Under the pieces are notes generated by a model. The model had not been told where the DNA came from and did not search any database. It saw only the letters and a list, made by a program, of their open reading frames with translations. A DNA stretch of 64,000 bases from Spirochaetia bacterium (lineage in GTDB: Bacteria > Spirochaetota > Spirochaetia > DSM-16054 > Sediminispirochaetaceae). Position numbers and translations under genes: made by a program. The DNA lies in the NCBI GenBank assembly GCA_034520965.1, contig JAXHMY010000003.1, positions 384,001 through 448,000 of the forward strand, written 5' to 3'. Positions 1 to 11,991 of this stretch are shown here, piece after piece. Every line of letters starts with the position of its first letter. Within the stretch, counting starts at the first letter, position 1.

Positions 1-648
1 GGTAACTGTGAAAGCACCACAGTCATATATACTCTACCCGAATTTACACAAGAATGCCACCTCCTGTATGCACATTATCCCTGTCCATTGTGCGGAAAGG
101 TTCATCCGCTGACGATTCACACGTCCCCGCGACGCAGTTGGTTTGACGCCAATGGTGAACGCGTATGGATTCGGGTAATAGTAATCAAGTGTGCCCATGC
201 CCGGGCGGCCGGAAAACAATACACCAAGCGTCTGCTGCCGGATTTCCTTATCCCCTATAGTCCTATCCGGTTGGATCGTGTGCTGGAAGCTGAACGCAGC
301 CGCCGAGAGGAAGGTGCGAGACTTGAGGACTGTAGTTATATTCTGGGGTGTCTGGAACTGCGGACCGTCCGAAAACATCTCAAGCGCCTGCATACCGCAG
401 CAGCCTCAGTTGCTTTGCAGTTATCCGAGTACCTGGCACATATCCCGCAGTATGCTCGTTTGCCGGAACCGCAACCGGGGCAGTGCACAGTCCTTCGACT
501 GAATAGCCTATACCACCGAACCACTGAGGCTGCCGGTGCAGCAGGCCGCCCGGTGACCAGTCTGCGGCAATCCCTGCAGGAACAGTGGTGGAAGCTTGTC
601 GGTAAACCACCAACCAGTTGTGTATCACGTGTTGCCCGTCCCCCATGA
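1..648 (+). CDS. DUF6431-like zinc-ribbon/HTH protein (5' end probably outside window)
   Basis: Frame is open from base 1, giving YPCPLCGK...IKCAH...TKRLLPDFLIPYSP (CxxC plus an LLPxFLxPY motif); directly upstream of a DDE transposase. Confidence 0.7.
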   Translation, partial: GNCESTTVIYTLPEFTQECHLLYAHYPCPLCGKVHPLTIHTSPRRSWFDANGERVWIRVIVIKCAHARAAGKQYTKRLLPDFLIPYSPIRLDRVLEAERSRREEGARLEDCSYILGCLELRTVRKHLKRLHTAAASVALQLSEYLAHIPQYARLPEPQPGQCTVLRLNSLYHRTTEAAGAAGRPVTSLRQSLQEQWWKLVGKPPTSCVSRVARPP

Positions 649-680: not shown

Positions 681-1387
681 ATGAACGGGAATGACTGGAA
701 GAATCTGAATTCGAAGGAACTCGACGCATTTCAACGCCGCGTGGCGCTGGTTGAGACGTTGCTGGATGACAACATCGATGAAGCCGTGCGGCAGGAGGTG
801 CGGCGTGCCTACCTCTATACCCAGGGAGTCAGTGACCGGACGATCCGTAACTACATTCGTCGGTATCGCATGCAGGGACAGCATGGACTGCTGTTCTATC
901 GTCACACACGATCGGCTTCACCGCGTATTCATGACGAAGCTCTCCGTAACAAAATTCTGGAGCTGATAGAGGAACGGCCGCGACGAACGGTTCCTCAGCT
1001 GCGCAGACTGCTCACCGTTGATGAACAGTTTGCCCCACGCATCGAACTGGTCTCGGATCGTACCATCTACCGGTTTTTGTATGAGCAGGGCCTTACTCAG
1101 AAGGCTCGGATGGCCAAGCGGATACACGGAGACAGGGCGGCATTTCATCGCTTCGAAGCAAGCTGCTCTCTGCAGCTGGTGCAGGGAGATGCCCGTGACG
1201 GAATATGGCTGCCGGCACAGCCGGGCGACACAAAGACCCGGAAAACTTATCTGTTTGCCTGGGTTGATGACTATTCGCGGCGAATCCTGCATGCCCAGTA
1301 TTTCTGGGATGAAAAGCTGCCCAGAATGGAAGCGACCTTCAAGACCATGGTGCTGCGTTGGGGAATACCGGAAAAGCTGTACCTCGA
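681..1387 (+). pseudogene. DDE (rve/Mu-like) transposase, N-terminal part, interrupted by RIT
   Basis: AGGAGG RBS at 671-676; HTH region; VQGDA (first D), FAWVDDYSRRI, WGIPEKLYLD then breaks at the RIT junction. Confidence 0.9.
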
Positions 1388-1475
1388 TTATGCCGAAGAA
1401 AGCGTAATGCCGAAAACGATGTGCTTCTACTTTCTTTGAAACGAAATAGCCGCAAAAACTTCGGCATAATGTTTT
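1388..1475. repeat. RIT left terminal inverted repeat (88 bp)
   Basis: Reverse complement of 4773-4860 with one mismatch (position 1416); core sites TTATGCCGAA (1388), TAATGCCGAA (1405) and inverted TTCGGCATAA (1460). Confidence 0.95.
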
Positions 1476-1479
1476 GTGG

Positions 1480-2511
1480 CTATAATCCGCACAGCCTCCG
1501 CAAGGTTTCCTCGTTCTTCCATGACGGCACTTCACCGGCGATATCAGGATCAGCCGTTTCCAGTGCGTTGCGGAGCATGTCGGTACTTGCGGTAGCGTAA
1601 ATCTCGGTAGTGGTAATACTTGCGTGTCCGAGAAATTCCGCGACATAGGATAGCGGCATGCCGGCGCGATAAAGGTGCATCGCTCGAGTGTGCCTGATAA
1701 GGTGCGGGTTAACTCTATCAGGAACATCCGGACATGTTTTCGCGGCCCTTTCACCACACGTTTTGAGTATTACGCTAACCGCATCGGTAGACAGCGAGCG
1801 CGGATTACCCCGGTGTATGGAATAGAATAGTGGAGCAGAGTTTACAGACACCTCGTTAGGATGGAACCGGTCTATATACTTCCTCAAGTGTGAAACGGTC
1901 TTGTCCATAAGGGGGATGCTTCTTGGTTTGTTTCCTTTTCCCGTCACGATCACGAACGGATCGCCTACTGCCAGGTTAAGATCCCCAACTTTCAGGTCCA
2001 CAAGCTCCTGCACTCTACATCCAGTGTCGTATAGCATAATCAACAACATTCCGTCTCTCGCAGCCTTCGTGGTTTTTCCACTTGCTTGTGCCAATATGGC
2101 TTTCATTGCCGGTTCCGACAAGTATTGAATCGTCGACTTCGGAACCTTCATCATGGGAACGCTTTTGATCTCCAGATACATGGAATATAGACGCAGGTCC
2201 TCGTCGGCACAGTACTTGAGAAACGACTTGATCGCAGAAAGTCTGAGATTGCACGTTGTTGATCGGCAGTTTCGTCGGCGCAACCATTGGAGAAACTCAA
2301 CGACTGTCGTTCTGTCGAAATGGCTGAACGAGATAGCAGAGAATTCGGTTTGGCACGTCTCCTTGAGAAACGTGCAGTACGTTGCGATCGATTGCCTGTA
2401 TGATTCGGATGTTTTCGGGCTGAGGCAACGGATTCTGGGTAGATAGACGGTAAGGTACGAACGAACATACTGCCAAAATTGCCGTTCAGATTTCCTGTTA
2501 TTACTGGTCAT
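1480..2511 (-). CDS. Tyrosine recombinase (RitC-like, third gene of trio)
   Basis: GCRVQE, GKGNKPR, PHLIRH, LGH...TTEIY catalytic motifs. Confidence 0.92.
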   Translation of the reverse strand: MTSNNRKSERQFWQYVRSYLTVYLPRIRCLSPKTSESYRQSIATYCTFLKETCQTEFSAISFSHFDRTTVVEFLQWLRRRNCRSTTCNLRLSAIKSFLKYCADEDLRLYSMYLEIKSVPMMKVPKSTIQYLSEPAMKAILAQASGKTTKAARDGMLLIMLYDTGCRVQELVDLKVGDLNLAVGDPFVIVTGKGNKPRSIPLMDKTVSHLRKYIDRFHPNEVSVNSAPLFYSIHRGNPRSLSTDAVSVILKTCGERAAKTCPDVPDRVNPHLIRHTRAMHLYRAGMPLSYVAEFLGHASITTTEIYATASTDMLRNALETADPDIAGEVPSWKNEETLRRLCGL

Positions 2512-3463
2512 GGCGAAACTCCGGAATGAGATTTTCTGTACTTCGCAGCTTCTCGCGAAACGTGTGGAAGAACTCGGGTACGAGGTGAAGGTAGTAGTCG
2601 GTGCTCTGCAGACACGCGTGCCCCATGTACGTACTGAGATAGGGAAGCATGCTATTGAGATCGGCGCCGGCGACTACCCATCTATTCAGATTAGTGAGTG
2701 CAAAGTGATGTCTGAAATCATAGGCACGAGCCTTATTCCCGTACCCGCCTCCAGGCACTGCCGTATTCCAGATTTTCCGAAACGCTATACCCAGACTTGA
2801 TTGCGCATAGCAGCGCGATGGTGTCGTGGGGAAAAAGAAGATTCTGTCCTGGTATACGGTCGATATCTGCGTATTGTACGTTTGCAAGAGTTCCAGGAGA
2901 TCGCGACCTATTGGTATTCGACGGCTTCGTTCTTGTTTCGAAGCAACGATATCGATCTGCCCGAGATGTAAATCAACATCCTCGACCCGCAACGTTCGCG
3001 CTTCACACGTGCGCAAACCGCAGCAATACAGCAGTCGGAACAAGACCGGCAGGACCCAATGTCGAATGGGGAACGAACCGTGAGGTTTCAAACTGTCGCA
3101 GGCATGAAAAAATGAGAAAATCTCATCTTTGGTGAAGAAATGCGGTACATAGCGCGCAGTTTTACGGTGCAACCCGGTGGGAAGCACAAACGCTTCGGAA
3201 ATCCCAATCGATTGGAGGTATTTGCCGAACTCTCGTACCGGTGATATCCGTACTTTGTGGGATGCCGGTTTTTCGTTTGTAGCTTGTGCCCACACAAGGA
3301 TCAGCTCTCGGGAAAAACATCCGTCTTCCGCATGCTTGCACGCATATCGATCAAACCGCCACAGCGAATACTCGGCGCTTTCATAGCGGTATCCTGCCGC
3401 TCGTTTCAATGCGACAAAATCCTTAAGATCGGAGGCGAAAACACTGCAATACCGGGGGCTCAT
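2501..3463 (-). CDS. Tyrosine recombinase (RitB-like, middle gene)
   Basis: CGLRTCEA, YDFRH, LSTYMGH...STDYY motifs; overlaps both neighbours. Confidence 0.92.
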   Translation of the reverse strand: MSPRYCSVFASDLKDFVALKRAAGYRYESAEYSLWRFDRYACKHAEDGCFSRELILVWAQATNEKPASHKVRISPVREFGKYLQSIGISEAFVLPTGLHRKTARYVPHFFTKDEIFSFFHACDSLKPHGSFPIRHWVLPVLFRLLYCCGLRTCEARTLRVEDVDLHLGQIDIVASKQERSRRIPIGRDLLELLQTYNTQISTVYQDRIFFFPTTPSRCYAQSSLGIAFRKIWNTAVPGGGYGNKARAYDFRHHFALTNLNRWVVAGADLNSMLPYLSTYMGHACLQSTDYYLHLVPEFFHTFREKLRSTENLIPEFRHDQ

Positions 3464-4702
3464 TTCAGTTCTCCAAGAGACAGTGGAATCCCGGCAAGAT
3501 TAAGCGCACACTCTCGTAAGCGGTTTTGATCCGTTGATAGATATACTTCGGTAGATGTCTTGTTGGAATGGCCAAGCATTGACGCTATAGTCGTTACCGC
3601 TACCCCTTTCGCCAACAGTCTGCGAGGCGACGGAATGACGGATCAGGTGTATCCCTTTTCTCTCGGAACCGAGTCTGATTCCCGCTTGGTGAAAGGCCTT
3701 GCGCACTATAGCGTAGCACGGTGAATGACCGGATAACGGTCTGAACGGCGCCTGGACACGAAGAAATACATGCCGGCTGTCCACTTGGGGTCTCTCTTCG
3801 AGAATATAACGACTGAGCGCATTCCCGACGTCGACGGTCAATGGAATCCGGAAAGGCTTCCGAGTCTTCACCTGGGGTATAACGATGCTTTCGTGTATCC
3901 ACTCGATATCCGACAATTTCATATTCACGATGTCGATCGCCCTCAAGCCGGTACGGAGTGCCAATGTGATAATGGCGTTATCCCGTAGCGACACCATATC
4001 CGTCTGCAATAGACGCTTGAGAGCTGAATTTTCTTCTTCCGAAAGAATCGGTACGATCGGATTCTTCCTGACACAACGTGATGGAACCGCGCGGACAAGA
4101 CGCGGCTCATCTTCGGCGTATGTAAGAAACGAACGAACGTGTGAGGCGACGGTCCGTATACTTGTAGATTGGTAGGTGGCCAGTAGATGTCGGAAGAATA
4201 GGGGTACAGAAGCAGGAGGTACCGTTGACAGGTTGTGGTACCCGCTATTTTCCAGAAACATGAGGAACTGCCGTATGATGTTTCTTGATGACTGTATCGT
4301 GTTTGAGCTCTTGCCACGTTGCCGCAGATCACCAAGAAATTCGGAATACAGCAGGACGAACTCCTCCGCTTCCGGCCCTCGAGGAACCGCCAAACCACCG
4401 TATTTAGGCCATGCAACTGATCCCGATGCGGCATAATCCCGCAGTATGAAAGCGGCCCGCCTCAGGTGATTTCTTCGTGAACGCCCATATTGTCCCTTTT
4501 GGTAGCATTCCTCGACGTGCTCCATGAAACGTTCATGCATCGTCTCGGTGTAAGAACTCATTTCCTCCATTTCGAAAAAGCACCAAATTCGTGCGAATGC
4601 CCGTTCATACTGATAAATTGATCCGGTACACAGCCCGAGTTCGGGTAGTCGTTCGAGTACTCCCTGAAAAAGGTCACTGGATAGTAAAGAATTCGTTTCC
4701 AT
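3460..4702 (-). CDS. Tyrosine recombinase (RitA-like, first gene); +1 frameshift near 3622
   Basis: AAGGAGG RBS before ATG at 4702; TGLRAID, HLIRH; shifting frame near 3622 gives RLLAKGVAVTTIASMLGHSNKTSTEVY and a stop overlapping the ritB ATG (ATGA). Confidence 0.88.
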
Positions 4703-4772
4703 CTGATTGTCCTCCTTGAATGTATGTGGACGGTATGTCCAGCTAACATTATAGAAGGGTCTCAATCAGGGA

Positions 4773-4860
4773 AAAACATTATGCCGAAGTTTTTGCGGCT
4801 ATTTCGTTTCAAAGAAAGTAGAAGCACATCGCTTTCGGCATTACGCTTTCTTCGGCATAA
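4773..4860. repeat. RIT right terminal inverted repeat (88 bp)
   Basis: Inverted copy of 1388-1475. Confidence 0.95.
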
Positions 4861-4863
4861 TCA

Positions 4864-4889
4864 AGGTTATCCCGAATTCGGGATAACCT
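4864..4889. repeat. Perfect 26-bp palindrome AGGTTATCCCGAATTCGGGATAACCT outside the right IR
   Basis: Read directly; each arm contains TTATCCCGAA, one mismatch from the IR core TTATGCCGAA. Confidence 0.95.
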
Positions 4890-4892
4890 CGA

Positions 4893-5574
4893 CAACGGCA
4901 ATGTCTATATTGCGAAACAATTTGCACGTATCCTGGCCGATCTGAAAATCAAAAAGATTCATCATGGTCCCTATCAAGCGTGGGCAAAAGGCAAAGTTGA
5001 GTCGGTTATGAAAACCCTCAAGCAAGAGTTTCAGGCCGAGGCACAACAGGCAGGGTTTGTCACCCTTGAAGAGCTCAATACCGCCTTGTGGGCATGGATC
5101 GATGTCGAATACAACCGGCGTAGTCACAGCACCACCGGCGAACCACCTGAGCAACGCTTTGTGAACGGACTACCCGAAACCCATCGCCGGGTGGAAGACC
5201 TGCAATGGTTTGAGAACCTGTTTCTGCAGCAGGACACCCGCAAAGTAACCAAATACGGAGACGTCAAGCTTGAGGGGAATCTGTATAAAACCACTGCCAG
5301 GCATGGGACAGTGGTCGAGGTGCGCTACAATCCGTTTGATCTGAAAAAGGTCTGGCGGTTCGAAAAAGGATTGGCTGTTGAAACCTTGGGGGTCAAAAAG
5401 CTTGTCCATGACCAGGCCAAAACCATCGCCGAAGAAAGCCCGGATGCGCCGCAGAAGACAAGCCGTGACTCGGCTCGCTATTTCGAAAAGCTACGCGAGA
5501 GTCAGGCTGCGCTCACTGCCGGGCAACAGAAGGTAAGCTTTAGCAAACTCAAGGGGCAGGAGGCAACACAATGA
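4893..5574 (+). pseudogene. DDE transposase, C-terminal part (Mu transposase C-like)
   Basis: Resumes in frame as (D)NGNVYIAKQFARILADLKIKKIHHGPYQAWAKGKVES, giving D(35)E spacing; YNRRSHSTTGEPP and VEVRYNPFDL motifs. Confidence 0.9.
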
Positions 5575-6356
5575 TCGACACCATTCTGAATCACTACGGG
5601 TTTTCCCGGCTGCCCTTCGGCAAGAATATTTCTGCTGATGAAATCTATCCCACCGAGAGCATGAACGAGGCCGGTGCCATGATTGAGCTGGGACTGGAAA
5701 GCGAGGATATTATCCTCATTACCGGTCCAATCGGCTGCGGAAAATCGCTGGCGGTGCGGCGGGTGGCCGGACAGCTGGATACCAACCGATACCAGCTTAT
5801 CTATCTGCGCGGCAGTATTGCCTCAGCAGCCGAGCTGTACAAAATGGTGCTGTTGGGAATGAAAATTGATCCTCCACACTCAATCGGGAAGGCCAAGCCG
5901 GCATTCTTTGCGGCAGCCAGCGAAGCAGCCCGCAAGTCGGTAGTGATCCTGGATGATGCCCAGGATGCCTCCCCCGATGCCCTGTTAGCACTCAAGGCAA
6001 TGACCAACTTCGAATCGGATTCGCGCACCCGAATCACCTTCATTCTGGCGGGGCAACCGGAGCTTCTTACCACTCTTGGCTATGCTCACTTCGATTCGCT
6101 GCGGGCCCGTATCCGGTTGTCGAACCACATGTCGGGTATGAGCCTTAGTGAGACCTGCGAGTACATCGACCATGGCCTACAGGTTGTGAAGCGGCAGGAA
6201 AAGCTTTTTTCAGACAACGCTAAAATGGAGATATTCAAACGCACCAATGGTATCGCCCGCCATATAAATTCGCTGTGCTATAAGGCCATTGTGCAGGGAG
6301 CCATCGACAAGAGGAGCATCATCGACACTGCCGACCTGCCGCAGGATGTGATATAA
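5571..6356 (+). CDS. ExeA/GspA-like AAA+ ATPase (transposition helper)
   Basis: YGFSRLPF N-terminus, Walker A GPIGCGKS, Walker B VILDDAQ, FILAGQPEL; ATGA overlap with transposase. Confidence 0.9.
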   Translation: MIDTILNHYGFSRLPFGKNISADEIYPTESMNEAGAMIELGLESEDIILITGPIGCGKSLAVRRVAGQLDTNRYQLIYLRGSIASAAELYKMVLLGMKIDPPHSIGKAKPAFFAAASEAARKSVVILDDAQDASPDALLALKAMTNFESDSRTRITFILAGQPELLTTLGYAHFDSLRARIRLSNHMSGMSLSETCEYIDHGLQVVKRQEKLFSDNAKMEIFKRTNGIARHINSLCYKAIVQGAIDKRSIIDTADLPQDVI

Positions 6357-6420: not shown

Positions 6421-6475
6421 CAGGCGGCGGAAATCAGCCGTGGCAAGGCGGGGAAGGAACTGCTGGCGGGGAACA

Positions 6476-6740
6476 CCATCAGCGCATCGATTTGCGGGGC
6501 AGATAAATGGGATGATATAGAGCGCTCGAGCGAGAAGTTGTACTATATTTCAAGCTGTAAAGCCGACGCGCCACTGCTGGCTTCTGCTATAAGCGGGCAC
6601 TGTGGAATAGAAATTTCTCTGCATTGGTTTCTTGATATAGCTTCCTGCACACGGAGTATCGCAGGTAAACAGCTGTTGGCCGGCTGGGACACCGGGTATC
6701 TTGAAAAAGTTTTGTTTAAGGTCTAACTGCGTTTGCCCTG
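6476..6740 (+). mobile_element. Internally deleted ISAs1-family relic with right terminal IR
   Basis: One frame joins ISASICGADKWDDIE, YYISS...AISGHCGIEISLHWFLDI and AGWDTGYLEKVL, segments normally far apart in ISAs1 transposases; ends TGCGTTTGCCCTG (6728-6740), like ISAs1 CAGGG ends. Confidence 0.75.
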
Positions 6741-6820
6741 GACCAGGTTGGTCTTGATTTTGACTTCGTTTCTATACCTGATGCGTACAGGTTCATTCTG
6801 ACCGACAAAATGCTGATGTT

Positions 6821-11495: not shown

Positions 11496-11738
11496 TCCTT
11501 TTTCCTCTCGATAGCTTCGTTTCAACTATTGTTAAGCGTTATTATCTCCACAACGACTTTTTATATTCTTCTTATAATTGTAAAAGTATCCGTCCTTAAT
11601 AGCAAACTTTCCCCCCCCCCCGTTTTTTTTTTTGCATTTATTATTCGTAAGAACAATAATAATTGGGCCTGGATCCACTGATCGATCAGTGTTTGTAGTG
11701 CGACCAAGAAAAACAGCTCGATTATTCCATACTTTTAA

Positions 11739-11904
11739 AAGGCACTACAGGTTTTTGCGGAGCAAAATACCTTGCGCATACCCCATATAAGGCACTACAG
11801 GTTTTTGCGAAGCAAAATACCAGCTCTACCCCATATAAGGCACTACAGGTTTTTGCGAAGCAAAATACCAGCTCTACCCCATATAAAGAACTACAGGTTT
11901 TTGC
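11739..11904. repeat. Tandem repeat, about 3.4 copies of a 48-50 bp unit
   Basis: AAGGCACTACAGGTTTTTGCGAAGCAAAATACCAGCTCTACCCCATAT-like units start at 11739, 11789, 11837 and 11885. Confidence 0.95.
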
Positions 11905-11991
11905 CAATTCTTTATCCCAATTTCTCCGATATTTCCGGGTTCCGGCTTGTGCTTCTCAATTATTTTTCCTATTGTTAATAAATGGTGACAT

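Follow-up and report, generated by a model that had tools for sequence, protein, structure and literature searches.

The window analysed here is a 64,000-nt stretch of the genome of a Spirochaetia bacterium (assembly GCA_034520965.1, contig JAXHMY010000003.1, positions 384,001 to 448,000 of the forward strand). Near its start lies a RIT element, a 3,505-bp insert with a trio of tyrosine recombinase genes, which splits the codon of the second catalytic aspartate in the DDE transposase of a host transposon. Taken as a whole, the data are best explained, at a probability of roughly 0.7, by insertion into this codon through site-specific tyrosine recombination, with the Rit proteins reading a degenerate DNA pattern of ~30 bp. 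That the DDE aspartate codon is a real target of these elements is nearly certain, and the targeting is strong, not absolute.

Joining positions 681-1387 to 4893-5574, with 1388-4892 removed, restores a single 462-residue frame for a Mu/rve-type transposase, which bears out the original prediction, made from the DNA letters alone, of an exact insertion in the catalytic codon. The triad of the rejoined protein is D170 (LVQGD), D236 (YLD|NG) and E272, a D(35)E arrangement, and it is the D236 codon that the RIT splits. The 5' half (681-1387, plus strand) encodes M1 to L235 plus the GA of Asp236 and includes Asp170; in profile searches it matches HTH_32 and, below cut-off, IS481 and ISNCY models. 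The 3' half (4893-5574, plus strand) runs from the third base of the Asp236 codon to the stop, includes Glu272, and matches Pfam rve_3 and Mu-transpos_C. An intact natural homolog, L168, is 455 residues long from its ATG and reads YVDNG at the same place. When L168 is aligned with CAST TnsB or with full-length retroviral integrase chains, the alignment starts at this aspartate, which corresponds to residue 287 in the former and residue 116 in the latter, taken here to be the second catalytic aspartate of each. Across the homologous IS3- and Mu-type targets, the split corresponds to Pfam rve profile position 72|73.

A second copy of the RIT, not foreseen in the original prediction, is found on another contig of the same genome (C8), with 3 differences in 3,487 bp (99.9% identical). 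Here too the element splits the YLD|NG codon, in a paralogous host transposase that shares 299 of 462 residues (65%) with that of the window, the two hosts being ~70% identical in DNA. Relative to the host, the gene body on C8 is inverted compared with the window copy, and a palindrome at one RIT end again lies on the host 3' side. Because near-identical RITs occupy diverged hosts in opposite orientations, the element must have moved on its own and chosen the same codon twice; near-identical copies at different places in the genome are also what a unit mobile in its own right leaves behind. The original prediction further proposed looking for uninterrupted copies of the host transposon. None was found in this genome, which is 86% complete: the host 3' half has only these two matches, both interrupted. 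Three further rve-type elements occur in the genome, none at a RIT position.

The insert itself carries three co-oriented, adjacent tyrosine recombinase genes on the minus strand, all with a PF00589 (Phage_integrase) match. ritC (1480-2511) encodes 343 residues, ritB (2501-3463) encodes 320, and ritA (3460-4702) encodes 413 in the C8 copy, sizes that fit the order RitA-RitB-RitC. The catalytic R...RH...Y residues are present in the translations of all three, as GLR, HLIRH and a distal Y in RitA, as GLR, DFRH and YMGH...YY in RitB, and as GCR, HLIRH and a distal H..Y motif in RitC. RitB shares 34% identity with the middle gene of the pHG1 trio; the profile libraries used contain no Rit-specific models. 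Discounting an extra base at 3622, ritA and ritB overlap by 4 bp (ATGA), and ritB and ritC overlap by 11 bp, slightly longer than the 4-8 bp given for RIT genes in PMC3414803 and counted here as a short overlap. The extra base in the window ritA is missing from the C8 copy and from all 8 sequencing runs compared (it is placed at 3623 in one run), and for that reason is likely an assembly error. Conversely, ritC of the C8 copy has a single-base indel at the position matching window 1983, where the runs compared on the window show none. Both indels, each of which breaks a different gene, are likely assembly errors. No sigma-70 promoter was found in window 4650-4950. The element fits the definition of a RIT and, as a RIT, is ordinary.

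Its ends are built from one 10-bp half-site that occurs 8 times. At the left, the order is target, a 6-bp spacer CCTCGA that is the crossover region of the plain end (1382-1387, plus strand), and the left arm (1388-1475, plus strand), with half-sites at 1388, 1405 and 1460, the last inverted. At the right, the inverted copy of this arm (4773-4860, minus strand; half-sites at 4779, 4834 and 4851) is followed by an inner spacer that reads CCTTGA on the minus strand (4861-4866) and would form a second crossover core, by a perfect 20-bp palindrome of two half-sites (4867-4886), and by an outer spacer CCTCGA (4887-4892, plus strand), a direct repeat of 1382-1387, before the target resumes. There are three spacers in all, two of them at the right end; the inner inverted spacer and the palindrome go beyond what was originally described. 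The terminal inverted repeats are 95 bp long (1381-1475 and 4773-4867) and 98% identical. The crossover hexamer CCTCGA had been placed over the Leu codon and the first two bases of the Asp codon, as it is in both direct spacers, and it also covers the last base of the Tyr codon. Counting the preceding A, direct identity at the insertion is 7 bp, which leaves 8 equivalent cut points. The little likeness proposed between target flank and RIT core also holds, the 3' target flank matching the arm at only 3 of 8 bases. The hexamer by itself is not the signal, since it occurs at 1,870 sites in the genome.

Further evidence for codon-level targeting comes from relatives of the element. RitB relatives were drawn from genomes (the best 80 of 109), from metagenomes (the best 80 of 311) and from a set of 400 genomes in the phylum, which added 3. 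Ends were called by the arm motif. From 228 calls, 12 were dropped by eye (internal half-sites or uncertain), 46 for having fewer than 45 bases of flank and 15 as duplicates, leaving 155 distinct flanks, four of them from this genome. Of the 155, 118 adjoin the second catalytic aspartate of an rve-superfamily enzyme: 75 Mu-like/IS481-like, 34 IS3-type and 9 IS30. With Pfam run on 83 of 132 eligible flanks and NCBIfam on 15, 61 of the 118 on-target ends are anchored on profile matches, many below curated cut-offs as the genes are halves, and 57 are assigned by in-register BLASTP (weakest E 0.012); flanks L014A and L049A, at rearranged ends, are doubtful. The other flanks comprise 12 in IS256 at YT|TN, 2 in IS66 TnpB, 6 in class B sortases, 1 in an amidase and 16 without assignment. 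In the closest clade (RitB identity at least 55%), 29 of 33 flanks are on target and 4 lie elsewhere, one in the amidase gene. Together with both copies in this genome, these counts support the proposed homing to the active-site codon of DDE transposases, in the form xD(N/Q/R)G; close homologs do not in general lie at unrelated sites, as a chance match to CCTCGA would imply.

Many of the exceptions are themselves patterned by lineage. One clade (L018, L022, L023, L028, L040, L051, L155 and L157) has spacers ending in AC and is found in IS256 at YT|TN, and another (L036 and L160) has spacers ending in GC and lies at the start of IS66 TnpB. Four RITs more than 99.6% identical to one another (L150, L152, L154 and L156) lie in class B sortase genes that differ from each other, all at the same Q(Y/C)S|DYG codons, and their clade nests among transposase-targeting RITs. 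The amidase-sited element, L005, is 99.7% identical to the on-target L004. Trees of RitA, RitB and RitC require 9, 8 and 11 changes of target class, respectively, against at least 31 in 200 shuffles (84 elements; FastTree, with long-branch warnings; kin share labels). As far as trees can tell, this shows lineage-specific target preference; it is not read as co-evolution because kin share target labels. Among 8 distant plasmid RITs (RitB identity 32-37%), junctions are readable in 4 (L180, L183, L185 and L186), and these have the same end layout at other motifs, judged by eye: FFVD|LLFFH with a nuclease-like D, the distal-Tyr region of a recombinase (TYTY(W)|YL), LLHEL|THAK (HExxH) and YDRA|YLG. 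The target rule is lineage-specific, since none of the four is at a DDE aspartate. Loose ends of near-identical elements in other sequencing runs add host-family flanks (WGIPKxCYLD and DNGxVYIA), one uninterrupted host allele, and two or three flanks unlike transposases. In run X9, a loose end at window 4867 leads from the palindrome end into a D-N-M frame, off the GG rule of this clade; the frame resembles the IS21 IstA motif.

At the DNA level, the targets share the pattern T(-10), (T/C)A(-8,-7), four free bases, GA, Y(A/C)(A/G)NGG, T(+14) and Y(+16), with T(+14) in 57 of 57 flanks. A 30-bp matrix (-14 to +16), built from 75 + 57 other RIT flanks with the sites of this genome left out, ranks the two occupied sites first and second of 6,678,462 positions. 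With a shorter matrix (-10 to +7) they rank 2nd and 32nd, and with a matrix from distant RITs only (RitB identity below 45%) 1st and 13th. Used as a predictor, the degenerate 30-bp pattern is thus shown to suffice for singling out both sites, which is a statement of sufficiency and not of cause. The original prediction had left recognition unexplained and had seen no target-matching sequence in the RIT non-coding DNA; the latter part stands, with no guide match in 14 elements, and the former gives way to this pattern. All 6 of the 3' flanks outside transposase genes keep GG(+5,+6) and T(+14), which occur together at 1.45% of the GA sites of this genome, a post hoc count on a feature defined on transposase targets, in which two kin sortase flanks reduce the number of events to five, one of them doubtful. 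This retention outside transposase genes points to DNA readout, and we consider readout by the Rit proteins probable. Most of the target signal seems to lie 3' of the insertion, because the 5' flanks of non-transposase sites mostly score like background. RitA is reported in the available text to have two core-binding domains (PMC8138268; bioRxiv 10.1101/542381), and by conjecture these make it the candidate reader of the extended target.

Although several steps are hypothetical, the end anatomy suggests how the element may move. Firstly, crossover of the direct spacers 1382-1387 and 4887-4892 would free a circle of 3,505 bp. At its junction the two arms would be joined through a spacer, the palindrome and a second spacer, which makes two equivalent back-to-back cores. 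We rate such a double-core circle as somewhat favoured. In our reading, all six spacers in the two copies can be explained by a single circle that carries CCTTGA next to ritA and CCTCGA next to ritC. Secondly, either core could pair with the asymmetric target, whose 5' half would replace the palindrome half-site and whose 3' half would replace the arm; the palindrome would then always fall on the target 3' side, whichever way the gene body points. Both ends are available for 62 elements, of which 50 pair a plain end with a palindrome end, 25:25 by orientation. Thirdly, strand exchange probably needs identity only at the terminal GA and tolerates mismatch at the other four bases, by analogy with IntDOT. 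Mismatches between inner and outer spacers number 10, 16, 14, 30, 0 and 0 of 78 by position, and the invariance of the last two bases beside four variable ones fits mismatch-tolerant exchange anchored on 2-bp identity. The pattern read by the Rit proteins would coincide with the invariant bases of the active-site codons, and what the element gains is probably a place to land that recurs in mobile DNA and is dispensable.

Several observations weigh against this scheme. No circle joint, empty site or inversion joint appears in the contigs of 8 runs, although contigs cannot show absence or rare excision. In-place inversion would explain the two orientations equally well. The other 12 of these 62 elements, 9 of them plain-plain and 3 palindrome-palindrome, need either further recombination or misassembly. 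With regard to readout, the matrix mirrors protein conservation, the wobble positions +4, +7, +10 and +13 being nearly without information. The 5' flanks of non-transposase sites are mostly background-like: L003C scores in the top 0.1% of its locus and the amidase site at 5%, and L005C, L010C and L074A fall at 33-77%. One loose end in run X3 reads GA rather than GG at +5/+6, and the RitA, RitB and RitC trees follow target class alike, which does not single out the protein that reads the target.

The plain-plain elements include L005, L029, L051, L072 and L075, and the palindrome-palindrome ones are L013, L014 and L076; they join two 5' or two 3' target halves, respectively, as expected if RITs had recombined with each other and rearranged the chromosome, or if the contigs were misassembled. 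Separately, run X1 yielded a contig in which the palindrome links two 3' target halves; it was set aside as a possible assembly artefact, both copies sharing a 33-base stretch there. The plain and outer spacers are the same in 32 of 50 elements and differ in 18, sometimes bringing a foreign codon into the host frame and once an in-frame stop. The original prediction of a reversible host switch-off finds no backing in these spacer differences or in the run contigs already described. In this genome YLD is restored by either spacer, and the host transposon could therefore be under reversible control.

The alternative that survives best keeps the DNA-directed target and replaces the circle with insertion in one orientation, perhaps by copy-out or through a hairpin and with no empty site, followed by an in-place flip between the plain and inner spacers. 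These two sites are indeed inverted copies within the 95-bp repeats, and 26 of 50 elements have the same sequence in all three spacers. Mobilome data on RITs gave free DNA without a resolved circle, with hairpins suggested (PMC5737581, in part), and related strand-biased circularizing elements move by copy-out (PMC10214605, in part). Against this, the outer spacer repeats the plain one in the 32 of 50 elements noted above, as a single crossover would give, and foreign spacers at either direct position (L011, L066, L068 and L158) fit carry-over from an earlier host by way of a circle. We regard this alternative route as unlikely.

A further alternative replaces DNA readout altogether: a RIT RNA would guide insertion, or the element would be led to its target by touching the host transposase or the ribosome that translates it. 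It could accommodate L062 and L063, RITs that are 99.9% identical and use quite different target sequences, and it agrees with the conserved target bases being the non-synonymous ones. When target flanks were compared with the non-coding ends of the RIT, the best 10-base matches nevertheless stood at shuffle level in 14 of 14 elements, and an Rfam scan returned no family and a single sub-threshold miRNA match; RNA-guided insertion of the IS110/IS1111 kind was rejected on these results. The 3' pattern is moreover kept in sortase and amidase insertions and in DNA without an open frame, and guidance of either sort is improbable.

Chance insertion at short GA sites, with purifying selection leaving survivors only in dispensable genes, might account for the ~15% of flanks (23 of 155) without a transposon-gene assignment and for the near-identity of L005 and L004. 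Selection cannot single out one codon inside a dispensable gene, both genome copies are the top two of 6.7 million matrix sites, and clades differ in target; this explanation is already largely refuted and very improbable. Spread of one ancient insertion by the host transposon as a composite, which would make the cases non-independent and has a parallel in nearly identical Tn::RIT composites from two A. ferrooxidans strains (PMC3414803, in part), is refuted for this genome by the 99.9% identity of RITs in hosts of ~70% DNA identity and by their opposite orientations, runs counter to targets in several IS families, and has a negligible chance of being right.

The window host is a three-gene transposon that extends from contig position C3:383864, its left end, 137 bp ahead of the window start, through window 6475. 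Its first gene (1-648, plus strand, open at the window start) is DUF6431-like, with a Pfam PF20020 match just under cut-off (E 1.3e-5). The split DDE transposase is followed by an ExeA-like AAA ATPase (5571-6356, plus strand; Pfam AAA_22, E 6.6e-18) and by a 24-bp right terminal inverted repeat with TGT...ACA ends (6452-6475). A 6-bp target duplication flanks the C8 host transposon (C8:9269-15918) and none flanks the window host, which suggests a later rearrangement at one flank. The layout of a small open reading frame, a transposase and a GspA/ExeA-like ATPase inside terminal inverted repeats is that of Tn6049, with which the host also shares a size of ~3.1 kb when empty and the TGT...ACA ends; membership is judged by gene layout alone (PMC2864759 and PMC3414803, in part). 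A collection of viral contigs yielded no relative of the host transposase 3' half. Just outside the host transposon, a 101-bp stretch (6641-6741) is 96% identical to contig C2:348018-348118. Further into the window, a 48-bp unit is repeated four times in tandem (11729-11922), two units being identical, between a chemoreceptor gene and a nuclease/phosphatase-like open reading frame.

RITs have been described from C. metallidurans CH34 and other bacteria, including RIT2 in the transposase gene of a Tn6049-like transposon of A. ferrooxidans and others in radC and IS66 tnpA, and the present element resembles them in its three overlapping tyrosine recombinase genes, length of ~3.5 kb, terminal inverted repeats with a palindrome at one end, and identical copies within one genome (PMC3414803 and PMC2864759). 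Its end layout is shared with the MIC of Bifidobacterium longum, reported in 2008 with three contiguous integrases, 96-bp inverted repeats beginning GA-TTAAGCCG, a 20-bp palindrome and IS3-type sequence on both sides; in the portion of that paper available, MIC is interpreted as sandwiched by two IS elements and not as one insertion in a catalytic codon (PMC2430713). RITs, the repeat and palindrome layout, and RITs inside transposase genes are thus already in print, and the new part is the target rule and the logic of the junctions. In the literature covered, subscription papers and theses lying outside its scope, no codon-level RIT target rule, pattern or core model was found. A 2013 study by Ricker reportedly may have discussed recurrent RIT target genes.

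Tyrosine recombination that tolerates a mismatched overlap is familiar from the coupling sequences of Tn916. CTnDOT and its integrase IntDOT share this tolerance with the present RIT, with a need for only 1-2 bp of identity at one edge; for the first exchange, two identical bases are enough for IntDOT (PMC2817482). CTnDOT differs in being a large conjugative element with one arm-binding integrase and one core per circle, unlike the RIT, for which two cores are predicted and whose three recombinases are arm-less. Several recombinase-like genes are likewise found in GInts and strand-biased circularizing elements, together with site-specific insertion and a 6-bp flank in the intermediate; they carry four genes and cargo and occur in Gammaproteobacteria, whereas the RIT has neither a fourth gene nor cargo (PMC10214605 and PMC5385486, in part).

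Specificity concentrated on the non-wobble bases of conserved codons is also a feature of homing endonucleases, inteins and group II introns whose targets are conserved motifs or IS genes. These splice out and spare the host gene, in contrast to the RIT, which breaks the host enzyme. A bolder and rather doubtful extension is that RitA, RitB and RitC form a heteromer in which different subunits would read the element half-sites and the unlike halves of the target, the tandem core-binding domains of RitA reaching +14. Swapping of subunits could then retarget elements among the DDE aspartate, IS256 YTTN, IS66 TnpB and sortase motifs, and RITs might be hyperparasites that disarm and ride other mobile elements, and also a natural collection of integrases that can be retargeted, tolerate mismatches and use a two-core circle.

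RITs are widespread, and in the accessible part of a 2023 survey their target specificity, insertion sites, empty site, movement and need for three recombinases are tabulated as untested (PMC10214605). Two near-identical copies in opposite orientations, in the same codon of diverged hosts, yield a predicted element and target sites defined to the base. Excision, integration, orientation and subunit roles thereby become directly assayable in what is a clean natural experiment. If this reading is correct, RITs would be codon-homing parasites of insertion sequences, able to silence a transposon family.

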